DNA of 62,468 bases from Chloroflexota bacterium (GCA_022562155.1 JADFPV010000005.1:1-62468), one strand, 5' to 3'; shown: positions 2,034-36,027, counted from the first letter of the stretch. A program made the numbers and translations. Notes: generated by a model not told the origin, from the letters alone.

Positions 2034-2081
2034 TGCTTCCCAAGCAGAGGGTCGCGAGTTCGACTCTCGTCTCCCGCTCCA
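2034..2081 (+). tRNA. tRNA-Gly(CCC) 3' half (att-like)
   Basis: TGCTTCCCAAGCAGAGGGTCGCGAGTTCGACTCTCGTCTCCCGCTCCA: anticodon loop, T arm, acceptor strand and CCA; no D arm upstream. Confidence 0.9.
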
Positions 2082-25632: not shown

Positions 25633-25878
25633 CGGCTACTGCCGCAGGCAGTAGCTGGCTACAGGCTAATGAGGGCGGCCCTGAAGCGGGCAAGCGTGAG
25701 GGTGGAGGGCTGCGAAGTTTGTTTTGCAGAATCGTCCCTTTTCTGTATACGCTGATGAGTAGTTTCGTGGGCACACGGCTACTGGCTGCGCCAGTAGCTT
25801 GGAAGAACGCGAAGCGTTCTTCTGGCTGAGGCAGTAGTTTGCCCTGCGGGGCGGGCGCATGGCCATGCGCCCCTACAT
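25633..25878. repeat. REP-like palindromic mosaic, left copy
   Basis: GCTACTG..CAGTAGC hairpins, GAAGAACGC-GAA-GCGTTCTTC, and GGGCGCATGGCCATGCGCCC-CTAC (GTAG-type REP on minus). Confidence 0.8.
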
Positions 25879-25910: not shown

Positions 25911-26675
25911 TCACGCGGAGTTGGGGAGGACATCGGAGATCTGGGGCCTGCTGGTGTTGCGATACGCCGGAGATGCATTGTGGTCAATACGGGCGAGGGG
26001 TGAGGCCTGGCCGAGCCGCCGGGCCTGAAGCGCTTCGAGCTCGTGTAACGTGCCCTGCCAGAGGCGCTGGAGATGACCTTGGTAGCGCATGACCGTATCG
26101 AGGTCGATCTTGCCGGGGATCATCCGCCGCTCGCGACGCAATTGCATCTCTTCCTGGGTCGGATCAGGGAGGTCATTCCGTTTGCCGTCGGCCTGCTCGT
26201 AGACCGCCTCAACGCCGTAGAGGTACATCGCGCTGTTGATGAAATCCTCCTCCATAGAGGCAACGTGCATGGCTGTTACGGCTGTAATGTAGCGATTGAC
26301 CCGTCGAAACTGCCAGAGGTGGAGGGCAAGAAGCTCAGCGAGCTCACGCTCGAGGTAGCCCTCCGGCGCGACGCTTTCGATGATTCCATCCAGGTGAGCC
26401 TGCCATGCCTCCTCGGTCTCCATGCCGGGGATGACGGGGCTGGGGGACGTAATACCGTGCTTGATGGCGTTGCGGCTGACGGCCACCTTGCCGGCGGCAG
26501 TCTTGGGACCACCGCCCTTGCCCTGCCTCGATTTACCGTTCCTGGGAACCTGCTGCGCAGGTTCCTTGGGTTTCGTTGCAGAACCCTGGCCGGCAGTCTT
26601 AGTCTTTGCGTCCGCTTCGTTCTTGGGATTCACGCTGTTACCTGGTTCCGTCGCGCCATTCTTGGATTTCGCCAT
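25911..26675 (-). CDS. Uncharacterised GPKTxxGK...NAxKHG family protein (HGGxSTG-related)
   Basis: GGPKTAAGKVAVSRNAIKHG followed by a helical region with LALHLWQFRR; RBS-like AAGGCGG. Confidence 0.75.
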   Translation of the reverse strand: MAKSKNGATEPGNSVNPKNEADAKTKTAGQGSATKPKEPAQQVPRNGKSRQGKGGGPKTAAGKVAVSRNAIKHGITSPSPVIPGMETEEAWQAHLDGIIESVAPEGYLERELAELLALHLWQFRRVNRYITAVTAMHVASMEEDFINSAMYLYGVEAVYEQADGKRNDLPDPTQEEMQLRRERRMIPGKIDLDTVMRYQGHLQRLWQGTLHELEALQARRLGQASPLARIDHNASPAYRNTSRPQISDVLPNSA

Positions 26676-26806
26676 GGCTCACCGCCTTCCAGTGCTCTCC
26701 CGCCGGCCCACTTCCTCAGAGTGGCATGGAGTCTCGTCTTGCAGAAAGAACCTGTATTGCATAAGCAGATACTCCTATAAGCTATTCCTACTCTCCATAA
26801 CGTCGG

Positions 26807-26835
26807 ATTGTAGTACAAATGTGCGAGCATGTCAA
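26807..26835 (-). promoter_or_regulatory. Sigma70-type promoter with possible LexA box in the spacer
   Basis: TTGACA-N17-TACAAT; overlapping CGCACATTTGTACT resembles GAAC-N4-GTTC with two mismatches. Confidence 0.7.
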
Positions 26836-26990
26836 GGTGTACGGATGTGGAATTGAGGTTGGCTCCGCGCCCGGGCCGGCTGCGCTCGCTGGTTCGCTGT
26901 CTGATAGTCTCGCTGCAGAGTAAGGAGCAACGCCGTCGGAGGCCATCCGCCTCCGTGGAAGAGCGTCCTATGTGGTTCGAGATTTGAATC

Positions 26991-27067
26991 TGGAGCGGGA
27001 GACGAGAGCCGAACTCGCGACCCCTTCGGCTGCGCTCAGGACAGGCCTCTGCTTGGGAAGCAGATGC
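26991..27067 (-). pseudogene. tRNA-Gly(CCC) 3' portion (att remnant) with a 24-nt REP-like insertion
   Basis: GCATCTGCTTCCCAAGCAGAGG[CCTGTCCTGAGCGCAGCCGAAGGG]GTCGCGAGTTCGGCTCTCGTCTCCCGCTCCA. Confidence 0.88.
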
Positions 27068-27310
27068 GTCCCTTGCTGAGTCTGATGGAAGCCCCAGATG
27101 CCCTAATCGGCTCGCCTTGGCCCTAAGCCTCCAGAGGCTGAGGGCCTTTGCTTCCAGCAACACACTAACACAGACTTTAGTCCGCCGGAAGGAACTTCGG
27201 CGGTGGCTATCGGACATGAGAGGCTTCAATGGATGGGGCGCCGTACCTGCGTTGGCTCAGATTGTGAGAGGACGTTGATTCGGCACGCACAAACCGTTGG
27301 CGACTTCGAT

Positions 27311-28528
27311 TTACTTGTGCAGCCGAACAATGAATCGATCGTCCTCTTCGATGAGGTCGGGCTCACTACCGTTGTGTTCTTGCATGGAAGGGATCAGTTT
27401 GAATGGGATGCCCATTCCGCGTCCCTCCACGTAGCCGTAGTCGCGAAGGAGGTCCTTGAGAAGCTCATTACGAGCAGCTCGGAATCCAACTCTCATCTTA
27501 GGCACGGTGACGGTATTAGGCAGGTTTCCAGGGGAGACTACCTCGAGCCTGTTGCTGTATATAGAGAGCTCTACGTCAGTGACAGCGATCGTGTAGTCAC
27601 GGTGAACCACCGCGTTGACGATGACTTCACGGACCGCGTCCATCGGGTAACTGGGTCGGGTACGGCGTCGACCCTCCTCAACTCGGGCGCTACTGCCCAT
27701 GTTGCGGCGTGCAAACTCCAGGGCGCGATCTATGACACCGGGCTCTGACACTTCACCGTCTTCTGTTAGCGAAGGAACTAGAGGGCCGCGGATCGTCTCT
27801 TCGTCGACCGTGTCATAATCCTTGCCCTCTCCGCTATACGCCGTGGCAGTAATCCCTGTCTGCGGGAGGAACCGTCCTGGGTTGCGACCGAAGAGAATGA
27901 GGCCCGCAACCGTGGCGACGAAGTGACCTCTATCCTCCCGAAGGATGTCGATGTTGGAGAGTAAGCGCTCCCAAGCTGGTAAGTCGGTCGTCGCTGGGTG
28001 GTCTTGTCTGCGGAGAACGGCGAAATAATCAGTTAGTCGCCGAAGGTCGAGATCCTGGATGGTAGTGCCCGGGACGGGTCTGATTTCGTGCCTGACTACA
28101 CCGGACGCTTGGTATAGGCGCTGCTCCTCTTCACGTGTCACTTCACGACAGGTCGTACCTGTTCTAATGTATGGGGTCCAGGCTCTGCCCTGTCTAGCTT
28201 TGTAAGGCTTGTTGGGTGCATCCGCAGGGAGTGTAATCACTCCCACAACCTCGCCATCGATTTCGATCGTTTCCCAGTACGGTATGGTAGGAGGCTGAAG
28301 ACGGTCTCTACACACGTTCATCACCCATTCCTCCGCCTCAGGCAGAGGGCGGGTTAGACCGCTAAGCGTACCGTCGTCTTCGACCCCTAGAAGAATGTGG
28401 CCACCCTCGAAGTTGAGTAGACAGCTTACTAGTCTGGCAAGGCGTTCTGGCAGAATGTCATCTCGTTTGAAATCTACGCCGGAACTTTCGCCGTTGGTTA
28501 TCAGTTCGAGGAGTTCGGAGCGGAGCAT
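27311..28528 (-). CDS. Schlafen/AlbA_2 + HATPase_c_4 (RecG-C-like) protein
   Basis: GESSGVDFKR...NFEGGHILLGVEDDG; AVREVIVNAVVHRDY, RLEVVSPG, RN, EGRGMGI. Confidence 0.88.
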   Translation of the reverse strand: MLRSELLELITNGESSGVDFKRDDILPERLARLVSCLLNFEGGHILLGVEDDGTLSGLTRPLPEAEEWVMNVCRDRLQPPTIPYWETIEIDGEVVGVITLPADAPNKPYKARQGRAWTPYIRTGTTCREVTREEEQRLYQASGVVRHEIRPVPGTTIQDLDLRRLTDYFAVLRRQDHPATTDLPAWERLLSNIDILREDRGHFVATVAGLILFGRNPGRFLPQTGITATAYSGEGKDYDTVDEETIRGPLVPSLTEDGEVSEPGVIDRALEFARRNMGSSARVEEGRRRTRPSYPMDAVREVIVNAVVHRDYTIAVTDVELSIYSNRLEVVSPGNLPNTVTVPKMRVGFRAARNELLKDLLRDYGYVEGRGMGIPFKLIPSMQEHNGSEPDLIEEDDRFIVRLHK

Positions 28529-28530
28529 TG

Positions 28531-31206
28531 TCAGAAGTTGTACTTTCGACGGCGGGTCTCGAAGGCTTCTCGGCCACCTTCCAAGAGGTCTTCTACGATT
28601 TCCCTGATCGTGAGAACGTCGATCGAGCCGAGATGGCCGATAGGAACTTCAGCCCGACTCTCGGTCGCCTCTAGCGCAACTATCAACTCAGCATCGCCGA
28701 GAACTGGCACGTTGGCGTTGTGAGTCGCAAACAAGAACTGTCGACGACGCTTCTCGTCGCGCATTCTAGGAACCACCCCTTCGGTTATGAAACGATTGTC
28801 AAGGTCGTCCTCAGGCTGGTCGATGATCAATGGGCCCTCGGATTCGAGGAGAAGGAGAAGAAGCACAGCGGTCGCCTTCTGTCCTGTAGAGAGTTCATCT
28901 AACGGATGCCAGTCTGGGGCTGAGTCATCGTGAGCGGTGTTGAGCTCTGGGCTCGTTGTGTGAGGGAGCTCGAGTTCTTCGATTAGCATGCAGGCCTCGG
29001 CCGACGCCCCCGAAAGGCGTTCAGCCTGTGCCGGTGCTATTTTGTACTTGTCCACCAGCGTGGTTTGGCCCTGACGACACGCGTCGGCAAATTCGGATAA
29101 CGAAACGTCCTTCGCATCGCGCAGGATGCTCATAGCCTCGGATACCCGGCCGCCCACGTGCTCTCGGAGAAGACTAATCAGCGGCTCCCGGTCCTTTCCG
29201 AATTGAACATTGACCCGGACCCTGGGTACAAGTTGACTGGAGACTCTGTTCGCAGCCTTGTCGAGGCGTTGAAACTCCTCGCCCTTGAGGCTTTCCCAGT
29301 CGGCGACTAAGCCTCGTCGGCTCTCTTGGAGCTCGCGACGCTCGCGCGTGAATCTGTCCTCTGATTCGCGGAGAGGACGAAGTTCTTCTATCTGCGTGCG
29401 TAGCCTGACGTATTCTTCTCCGTCCACGTTGGCGGTCTGGAGTTCGCGAAGAACGGCTTCGTAGGCTTCCTGTGCCGCGGTCTTCCTGACAGTCCAGCGC
29501 GTACGTAGACTCTTTATTTCTGTCGTGGCACGTTCAAGTGCTTGTCGAATCAGACCAGATGCCTTACGGACGTCTTCCTCGAACGCGTCGAGTATATCCG
29601 TGGCTTCTGAAAGCAGATCTCGTGCTGGGAGGTCAGCAAGAGCCTTGTCGGATAGAAACGCGCTGTCAACGGGAGTCAGGGTCTCAAGGAGCTCTAGTGC
29701 TTCGGTAGACGGCTCAAGGCGTTCACTCAGAATCTTGAGAACACGCTCCTCGCGAATCAGCAGGTTTCGATCCTTGAGACGCTCCTCGACTCCAAGTTCG
29801 CGGAAACGCTCTAATATCTCTTCTAGGCCAGGAAGCGCGGCTAGTCGATCTACGATCTCAGCCTGCTCTCGGTCGATTAGTAGAATCCTGATTCTCGATT
29901 GCTCGAGGCGCATCTTGACATCAGCTTTGCGTCGATCGATTGCTGGGTCGTGGTCCAGAAACCGATGCAGGAGACGAGTCAATTTAGGCGGGCTCTTGGC
30001 AAGCTCTGACAGTTCGTGCTGCCCGTAAACTTCTAGACCTGGCAGAATGTCCTGCGGACGGAGAGGGAGGACGTTACCCTCCTCATCTCTGACGACCGGT
30101 GGGTTGGGTATGGAGCGCTCGATTAGGTAAGTCTTCTCCGACGGATGATAGGAGCGCACTGCCAACGAGATCTTAGTGCCGCTGCGCAGGACCTTCTGGA
30201 CAATGTCTTCGTGCAATTTGGTCGCTTCGTCGCCTAGCGGTTCGAGGCCGAGCGTCGCCCTCAGACTCTCGATGATCGTCGACTTACCTGTGCCACGACC
30301 ACCAATCAAAACATTGAGGTTCTCGTTGAAATGGATTGCACACTGATCGAGGAACCCTCCTTGCCAGGTAATCGAGAGCAACACGCTGTGGTCTTCCGTT
30401 TCTGGATCAGTTGACAAGCGAATGCGGGAGTCCGGATCGAGGAAGGCTAGCCGCAGTCCGTCGATCGAGACAGATGTCATCTTGATGTAGCAGGAGGTGC
30501 CGGGGTTATCGAAGTCTTCAGGGGATGAAACGTCAGATGCATTGATCACGGCAACGGGGTAGTCACGTTTGTACTGTGGATCCTTGCCGGCAAGGATTCC
30601 GCGGAACTGTTCAGGGGCCTCGGCAACAGGTCCAGGTAAGGAGACCGCCAAGAGGTTTTCATGACGCCAGGCATTGACACGCGGTTGTCCGCTCAGTTCC
30701 GCTAGGAGGCCGCTTTTACTCACAACGTGGGCGGCAATGCAGAGGCCGCCCCATTCCTTACACTTCTCGAGGAGTTCGGTAACGTCTAAGCTAGACGTTA
30801 CCGACCTGGGGGATTCATCGTATATTCCGCAGGCTCCAAGTACTCTCTCGAGGTCCAGCGGGACGTCTGGATCGAAAAGGCACAGGAAGTGGACGCCATC
30901 CTTAGTAGTCGCTTCAAAGCCGGGATACACGCGTAGCCCGGCGTCCTTGGCTGCCTCAGTGAGGCTAAGGGCTGTCTTGACTCGATGATGATCGGTAATA
31001 GCGATTACTTCTACGCTGTTTCGCTTGCACGCCTCGATTATCGCCTCGTTGTAGGTTCCCTCGTCAGTGAAGCTACTAGAGCGGCCGTGAGTGGCTAGGT
31101 AGTCGAATGGGTTCACCTGTAGGGCGCACTTGAAGAACCGTGCACCATTCGGCAATTGGAGAGCTTCTAGAGCGGAGTTGCTATTGGCCATCAGCGACCT
31201 TGTCAA
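28531..31206 (-). CDS. PHP domain + SMC/ABC-type ATPase (Ppl/TrlF-like anti-phage protein)
   Basis: AITDHH, GFE..GVHFLCLF, IAAHV; IGGRGTGKST, coiled coil, LSTGQK, LIIDQPEDDLDN, ATHNAN, LLEGGREAF. Confidence 0.88.
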   Translation of the reverse strand: MTRSLMANSNSALEALQLPNGARFFKCALQVNPFDYLATHGRSSSFTDEGTYNEAIIEACKRNSVEVIAITDHHRVKTALSLTEAAKDAGLRVYPGFEATTKDGVHFLCLFDPDVPLDLERVLGACGIYDESPRSVTSSLDVTELLEKCKEWGGLCIAAHVVSKSGLLAELSGQPRVNAWRHENLLAVSLPGPVAEAPEQFRGILAGKDPQYKRDYPVAVINASDVSSPEDFDNPGTSCYIKMTSVSIDGLRLAFLDPDSRIRLSTDPETEDHSVLLSITWQGGFLDQCAIHFNENLNVLIGGRGTGKSTIIESLRATLGLEPLGDEATKLHEDIVQKVLRSGTKISLAVRSYHPSEKTYLIERSIPNPPVVRDEEGNVLPLRPQDILPGLEVYGQHELSELAKSPPKLTRLLHRFLDHDPAIDRRKADVKMRLEQSRIRILLIDREQAEIVDRLAALPGLEEILERFRELGVEERLKDRNLLIREERVLKILSERLEPSTEALELLETLTPVDSAFLSDKALADLPARDLLSEATDILDAFEEDVRKASGLIRQALERATTEIKSLRTRWTVRKTAAQEAYEAVLRELQTANVDGEEYVRLRTQIEELRPLRESEDRFTRERRELQESRRGLVADWESLKGEEFQRLDKAANRVSSQLVPRVRVNVQFGKDREPLISLLREHVGGRVSEAMSILRDAKDVSLSEFADACRQGQTTLVDKYKIAPAQAERLSGASAEACMLIEELELPHTTSPELNTAHDDSAPDWHPLDELSTGQKATAVLLLLLLESEGPLIIDQPEDDLDNRFITEGVVPRMRDEKRRRQFLFATHNANVPVLGDAELIVALEATESRAEVPIGHLGSIDVLTIREIVEDLLEGGREAFETRRRKYNF

Positions 31207-31382
31207 TTCGTTAGCTAATCTACCATCACTATAGTGCGGGATCGTAGAGCATGCTAGCGGGAATTAGGGACAGATATGCTCTCTGCTTACTGGACGAAGG
31301 TTGGCTTGTCACCCATCCTTGCAGACCTCGTCTGGCCAAACGAATACGCAGGAGTCAACCAGGACAGGCCGTATAGGCCGCC

Positions 31383-32126
31383 TTACAGTCTGACGCCCTG
31401 GAACGCCGCCGGTCGGGGCTGGAGCGGCAGGCCCCGGTCAGCGCATGTCCGTTTTACGATGGCAACGAATAGAGCTCCACGCGACTTTCGAATCTTTCCT
31501 TCGTGTACGGCTCGCTTCACGAGACTGAGCGTCTCGAAGATGGTGTCTTTCGGGACGGTCGCTGCGAGGCGTCTGTAGTAGCTTTCGCTCTCGGTGTCCT
31601 GCAGGACCGAGAGCATCTCGTGTACCAGGCCTTCACGTTCGTCGTCCGACGGGGCCTGATGTTTCTTACTTGAAAACGTTACGTTCTGAACAACGTCATT
31701 TAGTCTTTCTTCTCTTTGTCTTTCTTCGGGTGACATTTTTGTCTTTCTGCGGGTGACATTATTGTCACCCCTGGCGAAGCGTTCCTCATAGCGGTGGGCC
31801 TCGTCGTCGCTCACGTCTTCGATGTAGAGCAAGTTGGTGTAGCCCGGTCGCTCCTCCTTGGTCAGGAGAGCAGTCTCTACGAGTTCCTCGATGTGCCGCT
31901 GGATGGTTCGGTCGGTTACAGAGCGTATGGATGCGAGCGTTTCCACGGAGGGGTACGCGAAGCCTTTGCGGAGCCCCTGGCCGTCCTGCCAGTCGAAGCT
32001 GTCGATGACTTGGTAGGTTACTTTCGCGCTGTCGGAAACATGGGAGTAGCCGAACAGTAGGACGTTCGACGTGATGACGAAGTGCTTCTTTAGCCGGTTC
32101 CTCCGGCGGAAGGTGACGTTGTCCAT
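31383..32126 (-). CDS. Helix-turn-helix replication initiator (phage/plasmid type)
   Basis: SDSAKVTY...AYPSVETLA...DRTIQRHIEELV...TNLLY (HTH_36-like), followed by a linker carrying DNA repeats. Confidence 0.75.
   Translation of the reverse strand: MDNVTFRRRNRLKKHFVITSNVLLFGYSHVSDSAKVTYQVIDSFDWQDGQGLRKGFAYPSVETLASIRSVTDRTIQRHIEELVETALLTKEERPGYTNLLYIEDVSDDEAHRYEERFARGDNNVTRRKTKMSPEERQREERLNDVVQNVTFSSKKHQAPSDDEREGLVHEMLSVLQDTESESYYRRLAATVPKDTIFETLSLVKRAVHEGKIRKSRGALFVAIVKRTCADRGLPLQPRPAAFQGVRL
31728..31770. repeat. Iteron-like repeats inside the rep gene (putative origin)
   Basis: GGGTGACATTTTTGTC (31728-31743) and palindromic GGGTGACATTATTGTCACCC (31751-31770), next to an AT-rich strand-skewed tract. 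Confidence 0.65.
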
Positions 32127-32191
32127 AGATAAACAAGCCCGCGCGGACGGTCGATAGCCTTCCGGCGGGCGCGAGCAGATATGTTGACTAC

Positions 32192-32220
32192 ACTATACAA
32201 TAAAAAGGCACAGCTGTCAA
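32192..32220 (-). promoter_or_regulatory. Sigma70-type promoter of the rep gene
   Basis: TTGACA-N17-TATAGT. Confidence 0.75.
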
Positions 32221-32232
32221 AACCAAATACGC

Positions 32233-34527
32233 TTAGGTGAGCGGCTCTAGGCATACGACCGGCTCCCGCGCAAGCATTTCGCGCAGCGGGCTTAGATCCG
32301 GCAGTCCTAGCGCAGCCGAAATCGCATCGTCCGCAGCCTTACGTACCGGGTCCAGATGCATTTCTGGGAACGGAAGCAGAGCCCCTTTACAGACGTTATC
32401 GTAAGCCTTCGCAAGCGCATCGCGCTGCTTTGGGGACAACGACACAACATCGAGAACAGGCATGTCCTCCAGCACGGGCTTCTTGAAGTCAATCCACGCT
32501 CCCCGCGTCTCCTCCCTATGCGCGAGCATAACCAAGAGGCCGAGTGTCGAGTTCCACCACAAGACGAGAGATTTTTCAGCGGCTGCGGAGTCGGCATGGA
32601 GAGATAGTGGCCACCAGACGTTTGACAGGACTTTTTGCTTCATTCGCACAGCAGCAGCGCGCTGTGTTTTAAGCCAAAGCCTCTCAGCCAAGAGAATCCG
32701 ACCAGCCCGCGGCCAGAGAACGGTGACCTTACGCAGCGGCCGACCTTCCTTCGCTTTCGCCAGAGGAGCCAAATAGCTATTTGGCTCTGCCGCCATCGTC
32801 GTGACAGCCGTTGCATCGTGTCCCCATAGCGCAGGATAGGTAGTCTTGCCGTTTGCTAGATTGAACCCGTCGTGAATATCGCGACGGTCAGGACCTAGGA
32901 CGCCGAGCCCCTTCAGAGGTACGAGCGGAACGTTTCCGACTGTGCCTTGGCCGGGCAGGGTCACAGTCCCGACCTCGAGTTGGCTGGCAGCGCGAACTAG
33001 TTCAGCTTGCGCGAACGCGCAGGGCGGCATCCACAGGTTTTCCTTCAGTGTCACCCAGTCAGCGCGGACGGCTTCGCCAAGTTTCCTGTCACCAACTCGT
33101 ATTTCAAGTGCACCTTGGCCGCCAGTTATGTCGGGAGCGGTGCCCTCGCTTAGTGCTTGCGCAATCGCCAGCGCTTCGAACGCCGTTGTCGGGTTCTTCC
33201 ACAGATTGACGCAGACCACTTTCGCGTCCGCCTCGCCATCGTCAACTTTTCGCCCTATGACCAGCACCTCACTGAGGCTGGTGTTATCCGAGAAGTTCCA
33301 CCGCTCGGGGTCGTGGCTGCATATCAGGTACTCTAGGCGATATCGTAGACCAAATAGCGCACGCGTCTTGCCCCAGGCTACGCCGCTGAGTAGTGCTTTG
33401 GGCAACACCAGGGCCATGCGGCCACCTTCCTTCAAGTACTTATCGCCAATGGCGACGAACACAGAGCCAAGCCCGGCTGTTGCGCTTGCCAAAACACCTG
33501 GAACTTTCAGCAGCCGCGAAAGTTCCTTTTGCATCGGAGCGCGCTCGGCGGCAGGCAACGAACCAAATAGCAGGTTCCCGCCTACACTACGAGTGAACGG
33601 GGGGTTCATCACGCAAAGATCGATGTCTGGGGCTGAAGCAGTCTGTCGCTGTACGTCGCCTGCCCCCGTCACTTGTTCGGTAGCTTCTGCAAGGCCGAAG
33701 AGATCAACACTGATTGCAACGTCGCGGTCTCGAAGAAATTCGATACTTCCCAATCTCTTATGCGTACCGCCGTGCGGCATGCTGTAAAGCCGCATACCGT
33801 GGAACGATACCTCGGGTGCCCTTATAGCGAGGGTTGATGCAGTTAGGTGCAGCGCTGACGGAAGCACATCATAGCCATATATGACGTCCTCAATTAAGAC
33901 TTGGTGCAGATCGCTCAACTTGGGTTCGTCACCGCTGCTTCCGCACTCTCGAACGTAGTTGTCGGCCAGGGCTTCTGCTGCCGCCATGAGCAACGTGCCC
34001 GTACCACAGGCGAAGTCGACAACGCGGAAATCGTCGCTCATCTCCTCCAGGTCTGACCAATCGACTGGCCACGACTCAGGATCAAGAGCAAGCTTCAATA
34101 GTAGAGTCGCTGCTGGCACAGAGGTGTAGTAAGTCCCCAGGTACTTCGCTTCTTCCAGCAGCTGGTGATAAATTCGACCCATCAAGTCATGGCGCAGAGC
34201 CGCGCGCTGTCCGACGATGTAGAGAGCGGCCTTCGCCAAGTCTCTCAGCGCTGCGTTAACATCCGGGCCAGATGAGAGGCCAAGTAGCACATTTCGCGCG
34301 ACACGGAAGATAGGGACGTAATTTATGTCGGTGAGAATAAACTGCCAGTGGTCGGCGAACGCCGTTATCACGTCGCCACCACGGAGCGTCTTTCTTACGG
34401 TCTGAACTTGTGAGTTGTGGATGGAGAGTATTTCTTGGAAGGCCATGGCGTTGACTACTGTCAGCCCCGCGATTCTCGCAACCGCGTGCTCTTGTCGCGC
34501 ACTAAGGTTCAAGCCGGACCTAGCCAC
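32233..34527 (-). CDS. N6-adenine DNA methyltransferase with C-terminal specificity region (Type IIG-like)
   Basis: LGTYYT, motif I DFACGTGTLL, motif IV VMNPPF; likely GTG start at 34527 overlapping the upstream stop. Confidence 0.9.
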   Translation of the reverse strand: MARSGLNLSARQEHAVARIAGLTVVNAMAFQEILSIHNSQVQTVRKTLRGGDVITAFADHWQFILTDINYVPIFRVARNVLLGLSSGPDVNAALRDLAKAALYIVGQRAALRHDLMGRIYHQLLEEAKYLGTYYTSVPAATLLLKLALDPESWPVDWSDLEEMSDDFRVVDFACGTGTLLMAAAEALADNYVRECGSSGDEPKLSDLHQVLIEDVIYGYDVLPSALHLTASTLAIRAPEVSFHGMRLYSMPHGGTHKRLGSIEFLRDRDVAISVDLFGLAEATEQVTGAGDVQRQTASAPDIDLCVMNPPFTRSVGGNLLFGSLPAAERAPMQKELSRLLKVPGVLASATAGLGSVFVAIGDKYLKEGGRMALVLPKALLSGVAWGKTRALFGLRYRLEYLICSHDPERWNFSDNTSLSEVLVIGRKVDDGEADAKVVCVNLWKNPTTAFEALAIAQALSEGTAPDITGGQGALEIRVGDRKLGEAVRADWVTLKENLWMPPCAFAQAELVRAASQLEVGTVTLPGQGTVGNVPLVPLKGLGVLGPDRRDIHDGFNLANGKTTYPALWGHDATAVTTMAAEPNSYLAPLAKAKEGRPLRKVTVLWPRAGRILLAERLWLKTQRAAAVRMKQKVLSNVWWPLSLHADSAAAEKSLVLWWNSTLGLLVMLAHREETRGAWIDFKKPVLEDMPVLDVVSLSPKQRDALAKAYDNVCKGALLPFPEMHLDPVRKAADDAISAALGLPDLSPLREMLAREPVVCLEPLT

Positions 34528-35137
34528 GGCGACGTCTCCGCTTCGGTGTCGCGTCCCCAGTAGTTTCTCCAGCCATGCCCAAAGCTTGGGCAGCACGTTC
34601 GACGCTACCCGGCTCGGGCAGAACTGCGCGGGCGAATCCTTCTACCGCCTGACTAAGCACCTCGACAGCACGGGCCACCACATCCTCTTCCACGAGTTGT
34701 TCATACGTACGCCGCAGTAGCTGGGAAAGGTGCTCCAAGTTGCCTTCCACCCAGCCCGTGTCACCGCTCTCGCTGAACACCGCGATTCGGAGAGGCGCTA
34801 CCTCAAGCCCCCTTTTCAGATCCTTGAATGGGGTCTTTCGCAACTCTTTAGGATATAGGAGCGCAACGGCGAGATGACTTACGCCTTCTTCCACGCGTTG
34901 AGCAGCATTCGCCCGAACCTCTTTTGCGGCACCTGGATGGTCGTCAACCTTTCCCTCCACTACTGTTCTGAGGCCATGGAAGGTCACAATCACATCCGGC
35001 ATCCGCCTCTGACGGGCTGTTGTCTGCAGGATTTGTTCAGGGGCCGAGGCGATGCCTCGCTCATGCAGTAGCTGAGCGAGCAACACGTTCAAGACTTCTT
35101 CACGGTGGGTCTCAGTAGCCACTATGGTGGCCCCCAT
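34520..35137 (-). CDS. Putative PD-(D/E)xK restriction endonuclease subunit
   Basis: EEVLNV...RRMPDVIV...VVEGK; overlaps the MTase start. Confidence 0.7.
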   Translation of the reverse strand: MGATIVATETHREEVLNVLLAQLLHERGIASAPEQILQTTARQRRMPDVIVTFHGLRTVVEGKVDDHPGAAKEVRANAAQRVEEGVSHLAVALLYPKELRKTPFKDLKRGLEVAPLRIAVFSESGDTGWVEGNLEHLSQLLRRTYEQLVEEDVVARAVEVLSQAVEGFARAVLPEPGSVERAAQALGMAGETTGDATPKRRRRRG

Positions 35138-35395
35138 TTCGCGCCCATCACCGCCGAGTGTACCACCAGCGCGTCTTAGCAGCCCTCTCGTCAGCTAGGG
35201 TGCGCGCGCGGCGTCATTTTGCGCGCCGCCGAAACGAGGAACGCCACACGTCGCATAATGCGCGATGAGCGACGCGGGCCGTCAGGTTGGCGTAGCCTGC
35301 ACACGGTAATGCCCATCAAACGTCACTTGGCCGATAGCCTGCCGAACTGCGGTCTATAGGCCCGAACCGGTGGCCGATAGTTGCGGCAGGGCGTT

Positions 35396-35870
35396 CGGCT
35401 ACTGGCACAGCCAGTAGCTTGGAATCCTTCGACAAGCTCAGGATGGAACGCGGGTAACGCCGTGGGCGCACGGCTACTGGCACAGCCAGTAGCTTGGAAT
35501 CCTTCGACAAGCTCAGGATGGCTACTGCAAAGGCAGTAGCTTGCGCGTTCTTCTGGCCGGCCCTGCGGGGCGGGCGCATGGCCATGCGCCCCTACATCGC
35601 GGCGGCGGTAGCTTGCGCGTTCTTCTGGCTGGCCCTGCGGGGCGGGCGCACGACGAATGCCAGAGGCAGTAGCTTGGAATCCTTCGACAAGCTCAGGATG
35701 GCTACCGCCGTAGGGCGGTAGCTTGGAAGAAGCTTCGCTTCTTCTGGATACAGGAGCGATTCGGGACGAGGGGCCGTACCCCTCGGGGGCGGGCGCATGG
35801 CGACTGCTGTGATGCAGTCGCTTGGAAAGAATGGCTACTGCCTTTGGCAGTAGCTGCGCTTCTTCTGGCC
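35396..35870. repeat. REP-like palindromic mosaic array, right copy
   Basis: 51-bp exact direct repeat (35396-35446, 35471-35521); three TCCTTCGACAAGCTCAGGATG units; about 8 GTAGCTTG-like heads; GTAG-type REP palindrome. Confidence 0.9.
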
Positions 35871-36027
35871 GGGCCGGTAGTGGCGGCGGGGCCGCAGGCC
35901 CCGAACGGCCCGGCAGCGGGCCACGGCACAACGCCCGAGCGGCACGGCGCAGGTCCTCGGGCGCGTCAAGAGGCGCCCCTACACCAGCCCCAAGGGGTGG
36001 GGGGTGCCGGGTTGCACACGGGCGAGG

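Follow-up and report, generated by a model that had tools for sequence, protein, structure and literature searches.

The 62,468-nucleotide stretch of DNA analysed here (hereafter the window; GCA_022562155.1, JADFPV010000005.1:1-62468) belongs to a Chloroflexota bacterium known solely as a metagenome-assembled genome, and it carries two adjacent genes that, judged by profile matches and gene order, represent a further instance of trlF-trlG, a pair that already has a name. The reading that we favour, with moderate confidence, is that this pair is a horizontally acquired abortive-infection cassette built around an ATPase-controlled Schlafen RNase, in which TrlG would serve as the growth-arrest effector and TrlF as its controller. 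In functional terms, trlF-trlG probably stops cell growth to block phage infection.

With respect to family membership, TrlF scores 502.4 bits against NF045780, the NCBIfam model of the TrlF family (cut-off 350), over residues 20-890 and model positions 1-944, and a whole-genome search gave the same outcome. The NCBIfam Ppl model (NF042955) yielded only 173.7 bits in two partial stretches, below its cut-off of 1000, while the PADLOC models for Ppl (134 bits, best stretch 771-885) and for AriA of PARIS (32.6 bits, residues 768-832, partial) matched TrlF weakly. Pfam recognizes PHP, SMC_N, AAA_23 and AAA_21 in TrlF, SLFN_AlbA_2 (PF04326, residues 14-130, E 2.9e-15) and HATPase_c_4 (PF13749, residues 318-403, E 2.1e-18) in TrlG, and a Toprim domain in neither protein. 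The system is thus not undescribed, and it is not Ppl; it falls within a pair named in the available text of PMC7554251 and captured by the NCBIfam TrlF model. The gene layout given in that annotation does agree with the open reading frame coordinates (Table 1): both genes lie on the minus strand, the trlF stop ends at 28531 and trlG starts at 28528, leaving a spacing of 2 nucleotides. For trlF, an ATG at 31191, six codons inside the reading frame and preceded by AAGG, is a likelier start than the TTG from which the frame is counted.

The names derive from the temperature restriction locus (TRL) of Photorhabdus laumondii DJC, a trlR-trlF-trlG operon described by Hapeshi et al. (2020; PMC7554251). 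In the available portion of that paper, trlF is annotated as a 'histidinol phosphatase' and trlG, which encodes AlbA_2 plus HATPase_c_4, is misannotated as RecG. The published phenotype is a restriction of growth above ~35 °C, with transcription rising on temperature upshift. Clones growing at 36 °C are described there as carrying substitutions (e.g. Ser16Asn), stop codons or insertion-sequence insertions in trlG, temperature-tolerant clones as having zero mutations in the larger gene trlF, and deletion of the whole operon as likewise producing tolerance. Such a distribution, with many independent suppressors in trlG (1.2 kb) and none in trlF (2.7 kb), fits a TrlF that restrains a toxic TrlG, because loss of TrlF would then be harmful.

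The window pair resembles the TRL operon in its two protein families and in their order, with trlG (AlbA_2 plus HATPase_c_4) directly downstream of trlF on the same strand, and the NCBI TrlF model is named after the Photorhabdus locus. It differs in phylum, in genomic site and in its upstream gene, the 79-residue helix-turn-helix (HTH) regulator trlR being replaced in position by a non-homologous 247-residue HTH_36 gene; the likeness is judged from the paper's description, not from Photorhabdus sequences. The closest TrlG homologue outside Photorhabdus is placed in Vibrio parahaemolyticus by the available text (PMC7554251). The TrlG that we found on a V. parahaemolyticus plasmid, which may differ from the paper's protein, is 42% identical to the window TrlG, and its cognate TrlF carries QVN in the PHP domain. 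The word 'phage' is absent from PMC7554251, so that the pairing has been published, but without being presented as an immune system.

In terms of the candidate effector, TrlG was modelled with a predicted local distance difference test (pLDDT) score of 90.5. Foldseek matches its N-terminal domain to 3lmm, to SLFN14, SLFN11, SLFN13 and SLFN5 and to the SAMD9 tRNase, and the rest of the protein to GHKL kinases, including PDK2 and the CusS catalytic core; the winged-helix end was called from the secondary-structure pattern of the model. A PDB profile search with 47 TrlGs returned 3lmm (1.8e-21) and CbCash, a solved prokaryotic Schlafen (E 1.7e-9), and TrlG residues E14, D19, K21 and R22 align to CbCash E17, D22, K24 and R25. 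According to the available parts of PMC13462974, these CbCash residues make up the catalytic centre for tRNA-loop cleavage, E17, D22 and K24 being needed, and the motif Ex4(E/D)xK is described as general among prokaryotic Schlafens in the accessible portion of bioRxiv 10.1101/2025.07.24.666596. The acidic Schlafen residues to which the initial annotation had drawn attention are indeed present, the motif being complete in TrlG (E14, D19, K21). Across a 47-row alignment, E14 and K21 are each found in 46 rows, position 19 is E or D in 29 and Q in 18, and Ser16 is kept in 43. E301, N305 (ExxxN) and the GxG motif are invariant in the same alignment, consistent with ATP binding, and we take ExxxN to be the GHKL N-box. 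By analogy with these relatives, TrlG is most likely a metal-dependent endoribonuclease, and more precisely a tRNase.

The coupling of the two genes extends well beyond the window. Among species-representative genomes, 531 related stretches were confirmed and the best 80 were kept, a set biased towards relatives of the window TrlF; three of these reach a contig edge, hence 77 are assessable. A TrlG homologue, scored as a phmmer match at E ≤ 1e-5 directly downstream on the same strand, follows TrlF in 51 of the 77, spanning many phyla and one archaeon, and trlF is broken in two of the 51 (L033 and L058). The gaps between trlF and trlG in relatives are mostly -19 to +15 nucleotides, counted from the first possible start codon. 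Moreover, TrlF and TrlG co-evolve: their identities track one another with a Mantel r of 0.92 over 55 pairs (0 of 999 permutations as high), and with an r of 0.83 in the clade whose PHP domain is of the QxN type described below. The pairing on which the initial annotation built its proposal is therefore conserved. In a Chloroflexota clade, a solo TrlF of the HxH type is followed by a group-1 glycosyltransferase (L051:8939-10015, L055:8829-9962, L054:8977-10053), which may be an alternative TrlF partner; the Pfam family 'GT4-conflict' matches the L055 glycosyltransferase above its cut-off and the L051 protein just under it.

The proposed controller combines an altered PHP site with a complete set of ATPase motifs. 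The PHP domain of TrlF retains T71-D72-H73, E98, H106 and A159-H160, reads Q31-V-N33 where relatives have HxH, and ends in D225-V-S227 where canonical PHP domains have DxH; our motif table agrees with the initial annotation on each of these positions. Three canonical His ligands are consequently gone, with Gln and Asn at two of them and the third missing. Read across 81 alignment rows, most members of the TrlF family lack the terminal His, and its absence is not special to the window gene. The PHP domain modelled alone with AlphaFold reached a pLDDT of 94.8, and its nearest solved structures by Foldseek are the PHP nucleases EndoQ (7k30, E 2.3e-7, TMq 0.63), TM0559 and RNase AM; a PDB profile search with the domain also yields matches. 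The ATPase motifs, described as intact from the outset, were all located: Walker A GTGKST (305-310), Q-loop Q396, signature LSTGQK (772-777), Walker B DQPED (796-800) and H-loop THN (828-830), with the limits of the helical insert that splits the head predicted at ~421 and ~760. We consider it more likely that the PHP domain of the QxN clade senses or regulates than that it works as a strong exonuclease. Within this clade, TrlF segments 231-280, 461-520 and 571-610 are conserved in paired forms only, the solo forms being drawn from few clades; these segments may be a docking site for TrlG, a lead rather than evidence. A complex prediction for TrlF 296-891 with TrlG 1-404, run with the PHP domain and first ATPase-head strands left out and without controls, gave a score of 0.00 and a mark of 0.32, values that point in neither direction.

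With respect to distribution, a FastTree phylogeny of 89 TrlF rows (the broken or truncated genes L024, L033, L039, L057 and L058 having been dropped) cuts across taxonomy, an ANME-1 archaeon standing beside an actinobacterial-type genome on very short branches. In the window's own order, TrlF (E ≤ 1e-40) occurs in 4 of 93 genomes, the window's included, and in 0 of 2 same-genus genomes, these being 77-87% complete. Because the tree departs from taxonomy and the occurrence is patchy, trlF-trlG reads, on these comparisons, as a mobile accessory cassette. Plasmid records contain TrlF in 914 cases and TrlG in 155, IncC resistance plasmids among them. The loci L010 and L012 hold near-identical trlF-trlG copies in 'Candidatus Hakubella thermalkaliphila' and an ANME-1 archaeon, with branch lengths of ~0.08-0.10, a closeness that suggests a recent transfer between domains.

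The surroundings of the cassette in relatives point to methylation-based defence, a link that is recurrent at the level of the family. IncC plasmids show the orders hsdM-hsdS-trlF-trlG-hsdR and hsdR-trlF-trlG-hsdS-AAA-hsdM, a Vibrio plasmid carries pglX-trlF-trlG-pglZ-brxL, nesting the pair in a bacteriophage exclusion (BREX) system, and several loci have the type III order mod-trlF-trlG-res. Of 73 immediate upstream neighbours, 6 are Mod-like methylases, and of 69 immediate downstream neighbours, 6 match ResIII and 5 RE_endonuc; restriction-modification (RM) genes are found within 6 kb in 13 of the 80 loci. Solo TrlFs of the QxN type also adjoin such genes, directly after hsdM-hsdS-hsdR in Microbacterium (L038:118-5992) and directly before a Mod/Res pair in Arthrobacter (L029:8768-13191), so the restriction link is independent of TrlG. 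According to the available text of PMC12839542, at least 1017 taxa have proteins joining a Schlafen domain, a minimal histidine kinase and a winged HTH in close linkage with BREX and BREX-related core loci, and these proteins are called backup suicidal effectors.

Building from these features, a working mechanism can be outlined. TrlF, in which a PHP domain precedes a Rad50/SMC-like ABC ATPase interrupted by a long coiled-coil insert, would hold TrlG inactive, sequestration and release being the favoured mode, and would release or activate it on sensing an infection cue. If TrlF behaves like Ppl, that cue could be DNA ends (3') or nucleotide depletion; if it behaves like PrrC and PARIS, TrlG could be released once a neighbouring methylation-based defence or restriction system is disabled. 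Freed TrlG would then cut tRNA, translation would halt and the infection would abort, the binding of TrlG by TrlF, the direction of control and the choice of tRNA as target all being presumed in this scheme. Only tentatively would we go further and propose a guard cassette for methylation-based immunity in which the conserved QxN PHP domain is a non-catalytic sensor of nucleotides or DNA ends, TrlF sequesters TrlG, and the device fires when a phage disables or outruns the accompanying RM or BREX system.

Among known systems, Ppl is said to be a single-gene PHP plus ATPase anti-phage protein of E. coli, reportedly from the 2020 work of Gao et al. It acts alone as a single-stranded DNA exonuclease inhibited by nucleoside triphosphates, according to the available portions of PMC12904381 and PMC11482910. 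TrlF shares the architecture of a PHP domain plus an ABC-type ATPase with Ppl, and the two are sister families in NCBIfam with weak model matches, but the window TrlF fails the Ppl model, has a co-evolving partner gene and lacks the three His ligands that Ppl-like proteins keep (QVN/DVS versus HxH/DxH). No protein passed the Ppl cut-off of 1000 in a sample of 400 genomes of one class, and the PHP motifs were therefore compared with Ppl-like proteins from that sample (389-614 bits) rather than with E. coli Ppl; those from 6 genomes read HxH and D-x-H.

TrlG, for its part, shares the Ex4(E/D)xK motif and the defence-island habit with prokaryotic Schlafens (Cash, pSlfn and the BREX-linked proteins). 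The order Schlafen, histidine kinase (HisK)-like, HTH is given as the commonest pSlfn architecture (34% plus 19.2%) in the accessible portion of bioRxiv 10.1101/2025.07.24.666596, and TrlG matches it in having PF04326 with the motif, a C-terminal GHKL domain and an HTH. In Cash and pSlfn5 the controlling sensor, for cA4 in the first and Ig-like in the second, is fused to the nuclease, whereas TrlG would be controlled by an ABC ATPase encoded separately. No PHP or ABC-ATPase partner is mentioned in the main texts of PMC13462974, PMC12839542 and bioRxiv 10.1101/2025.07.24.666596, whose supplements may list it.

PARIS and PrrC offer a likeness of a different kind, each coupling an ABC-type ATPase to a latent tRNA nuclease as a fallback defence that is often lodged within or next to a restriction system. 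PrrC is a latent tRNA nuclease within the EcoprrI type I RM locus, and the order hsdM-hsdS-trlF-trlG-hsdR mirrors the placement of prrC. PARIS consists of the AriA ABC ATPase and the AriB Toprim tRNase (PMC12839542, in its available part). The TrlF-TrlG pair differs from both in that the TrlF ATPase belongs to another clade and that the nuclease fold is Schlafen rather than Toprim (PARIS) or the PrrC C-domain (PrrC). In addition, the window cassette adjoins an RM pair instead of lying inside one, and no anti-restriction trigger is known for TrlF-TrlG. In our literature searches, only PMC7554251 named TrlF or TrlG for this locus, only the same paper came up for HATPase_c_4 with defence, and no paper joining Schlafen, PHP, ATPase and phage defence was found. 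Krishnan et al. 2020, cited in the available text of PMC12839542 for Schlafen-linked and ABC-ATPase conflict systems, may already describe the pairing.

Several observations weigh against an abortive-infection cassette with TrlG as its effector. TrlF stands alone in 26 of the 77 assessable loci and on several plasmids, and can thus function, or at any rate be maintained, in the absence of TrlG. Of the 58 readable TrlG rows, 19, which belong to a single HxH clade, have Gln in place of the second acidic residue of the Schlafen motif (E-Q-K), so RNase activity may not be universal among TrlGs. The Photorhabdus substitution Ser16Asn would fall inside the catalytic motif if the numbering matches, and the same numbering in Photorhabdus TrlG is assumed. 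A small regulator resembling trlR was not found at the window locus, a 65-69-residue HTH gene lying upstream in only 5 related loci. With the seeds used, 67 of the 80 loci have no RM gene within 6 kb, and the immediate neighbours of trlF-trlG are often housekeeping genes. Our search of the literature returned no experiment on phage defence by TrlF-TrlG, and the Ppl relative of TrlF is reported as a self-sufficient exonuclease (PMC12904381, in the portion available).

This last point, together with the frequency of solo TrlF (which includes pMAR2, Xanthomonas plB and V. anguillarum p292), leads to the alternative that survives best, namely that the effector proper is TrlF, working as a Ppl-like DNA exonuclease/ATPase that attacks phage DNA, with TrlG as an accessory DNA- or RNA-binding regulator or a dispensable second effector. 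The winged-helix-like fold at the end of TrlG, a COG-style annotation as transcriptional regulators and the E-Q-K variants would suit such a role. Nonetheless, we regard this alternative as unlikely: the window PHP site is without three canonical His ligands, the mutations behind the Photorhabdus phenotype lie in trlG and in no case in trlF in the available text (PMC7554251), and the Schlafen triad is complete in 27 of 27 partners of QxN-type TrlFs.

A second alternative, put forward by the initial annotation, is that the PHP nuclease decayed in this lineage and that the Schlafen protein was recruited as a substitute effector. The lost His ligands of the QxN clade agree with it, as does the retention of the triad in all QxN-clade TrlGs, whereas one HxH clade has E-Q-K. 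The phylogeny argues otherwise. QxN-type PHP domains form one well-supported clade of 43 rows, nested among HxH lineages, with TrlG in 26 and without it in 17; of the other 46 rows, 32 have TrlG, 11 have none and 3 cannot be scored. These counts describe clade traits and not independent events, and the co-occurrence of the ALQVN-type clade with AlbA_2 genes, which the initial annotation proposed as a check, shows no excess (26/43 versus 32/43 scorable others). Moreover, TrlG is present in every major clade of the family, with at least 9 changes on the tree, an intact-PHP clade also keeps the TrlG triad, and 6 of 7 Ppl-like loci with a complete HxH...DxH site have TrlG directly downstream. Because TrlG is spread over all clades, those with an intact PHP included, we read it from these alignments as an old, general partner of the ATPase superfamily that was lost several times, not as one recruited after PHP decay. 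The strict conservation of QVN across phyla likewise suggests a selected variant rather than decay, perhaps with a sensing role, and we judge replacement of a weakened PHP by the Schlafen protein to be quite improbable.

We give similarly little credence to a cassette that is not immune at all, whether a stress- or temperature-responsive growth brake or a toxin-antitoxin-like addiction module stabilising islands and plasmids: the sole published phenotype is the temperature-linked one (PMC7554251, as available), plasmid carriage is frequent, and solo TrlF sits beside partition and toxin-antitoxin genes on pMAR2 and plB, but a pair inserted time and again between the genes of type I, type III and BREX systems behaves as defence modules typically do, the relatives of TrlF (Ppl) and of TrlG (prokaryotic Schlafens) have been shown in experiments to act against phage, and addiction and abortive infection can coexist.

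In the window, the favoured abortive-infection cassette occupies a small island of low GC content (Table 1). In the family relatives G405 and G411, the glycosyltransferase and/or RecG genes come after an ArgS-DUF402 arrangement, and nothing the size of the island separates them; in a same-genus genome, the island site is taken up by 8.5 kb of ordinary genes (ABC-2 transporter, TetR, response regulator, acyltransferase). A defence hot spot at this site was considered and is not supported, given the transporter and regulator genes of the same-genus genome. Upstream of the cassette, the HTH_36 gene (Pfam E 1.9e-6) has a promoter-like site at 32220-32192, and the methyltransferase-like protein matches Pfam N6_Mtase (30.6 bits, cut-off 20.4) and PADLOC methyltransferase models and has an NPPF motif. 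The 205-residue protein has no Pfam match; in the ESM Atlas it structurally resembles the N-terminal parts of Eco57I/MmeI-type enzymes, BpuSI_N and HSDR_N. As a lead based on these matches, the last two genes may be a type IIG-like RM enzyme split into a nuclease and a methylase/target-recognition protein. The association with an RM system raised by the initial annotation is thus sustained by this RM-like pair and by the recurrent family-wide link; it fails to extend to the window's own RM genes, which are without homologue in the 80 related loci, as are the 247-residue HTH and 254-residue proteins.

The 254-residue protein (25911-26675, minus strand) lies at the island border, has a Lys/Gly-rich N-terminus and gave no Pfam, NCBIfam or clear PADLOC match; a protein of 44% identity is found at the same site in a same-genus genome without the island. 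Clusters of palindromic repeats resembling repetitive extragenic palindromic elements flank the island on both sides (25634-25878 and 35389-35984), include an exact 38-nucleotide direct repeat (25841-25878 = 35560-35597) and translate to spurious open reading frames with repeated peptide motifs.

The initial annotation had also read a disrupted tRNA-Gly gene beside the cassette. We reject this candidate: what lies there is a 3' fragment, one of at least 13 in the genome, ARAGORN and Rfam call no tRNA gene at it, and an apparently intact tRNA-Gly(CCC) is present on another contig. A degenerate tRNA pattern gave 13 forward and 2 reverse matches across the genome, with copies in the window (26991-27063, minus strand; 2051-2081, plus strand) and on contigs C50, C57, C92, C93 and others. 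The L119 copy on contig C92 reads as a complete tRNA, judged from alignment alone, and the 24-nucleotide variable-loop insert is common to the window copy by trlG and one C92 copy. The fragment was probably left behind by an integration event or belongs to a dispersed repeat derived from a tRNA.

Table 1. Coordinates of the trlF-trlG pair, its domains and neighbouring features in the window (aa, amino acids; nt, nucleotides)
Feature	Coordinates	Strand	Description
trlF	28531-31206	-	891 aa from TTG; PHP domain fused to SMC/Rad50-like ABC ATPase
PHP domain of TrlF	30397-31149	-	residues ~20-270; QxN instead of first HxH, terminal His absent
ABC ATPase of TrlF	28534-30384	-	residues ~275-891; head split by long helical insert, ~421-760
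trlG	27311-28528	-	405 aa, ATG; Schlafen-type RNase domain, GHKL/histidine-kinase-like ATP-binding domain, C-terminal winged-helix-like end
Schlafen domain of TrlG	28094-28528	-	residues ~1-145; E14, D19, K21, R22
GHKL-like and winged-helix part of TrlG	27314-27943	-	residues ~196-405; E301, N305 (ExxxN) and G371-x-G373 conserved
HTH_36 protein	31383-32126	-	247 aa; in the position of trlR, not homologous
N6-adenine DNA methyltransferase-like protein	32233-34596	-	787 aa, start uncertain; 77-nt overlap with next reading frame
205-aa protein	34520-35137	-	probably PD-(D/E)xK nuclease, detached half of type IIG-like enzyme
tRNA-Gly(CCC) 3' fragment	26991-27063	-	73 nt; covers anticodon arm through CCA end and contains a 24-nt insert; lies shortly after trlG
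Low-GC island with cassette	26700-35300		~8.5 kb, borders approximate; GC 0.557-0.573 versus 0.60-0.645 in flanks

Taken by itself, the window copy is ordinary, one more cassette in a small acquired island. The pair to which it belongs is widespread and joins two families whose relatives are proven anti-phage proteins, and, if the defence role is true, a common two-gene system would be added to the defence catalogue. Working out the function of TrlF-TrlG would moreover account for a published bacterial temperature limit and reveal what switches on proteins of the Schlafen, HisK-like, HTH type, the commonest architecture among bacterial Schlafens. Should the more tentative guard proposal prove true, the logic of PrrC and PARIS would have been rebuilt from a Rad50-like ATPase and the RNase fold of human SLFN11, and the temperature limit of Photorhabdus would be a mishap, TrlG being set free once TrlF fails at 36 °C.

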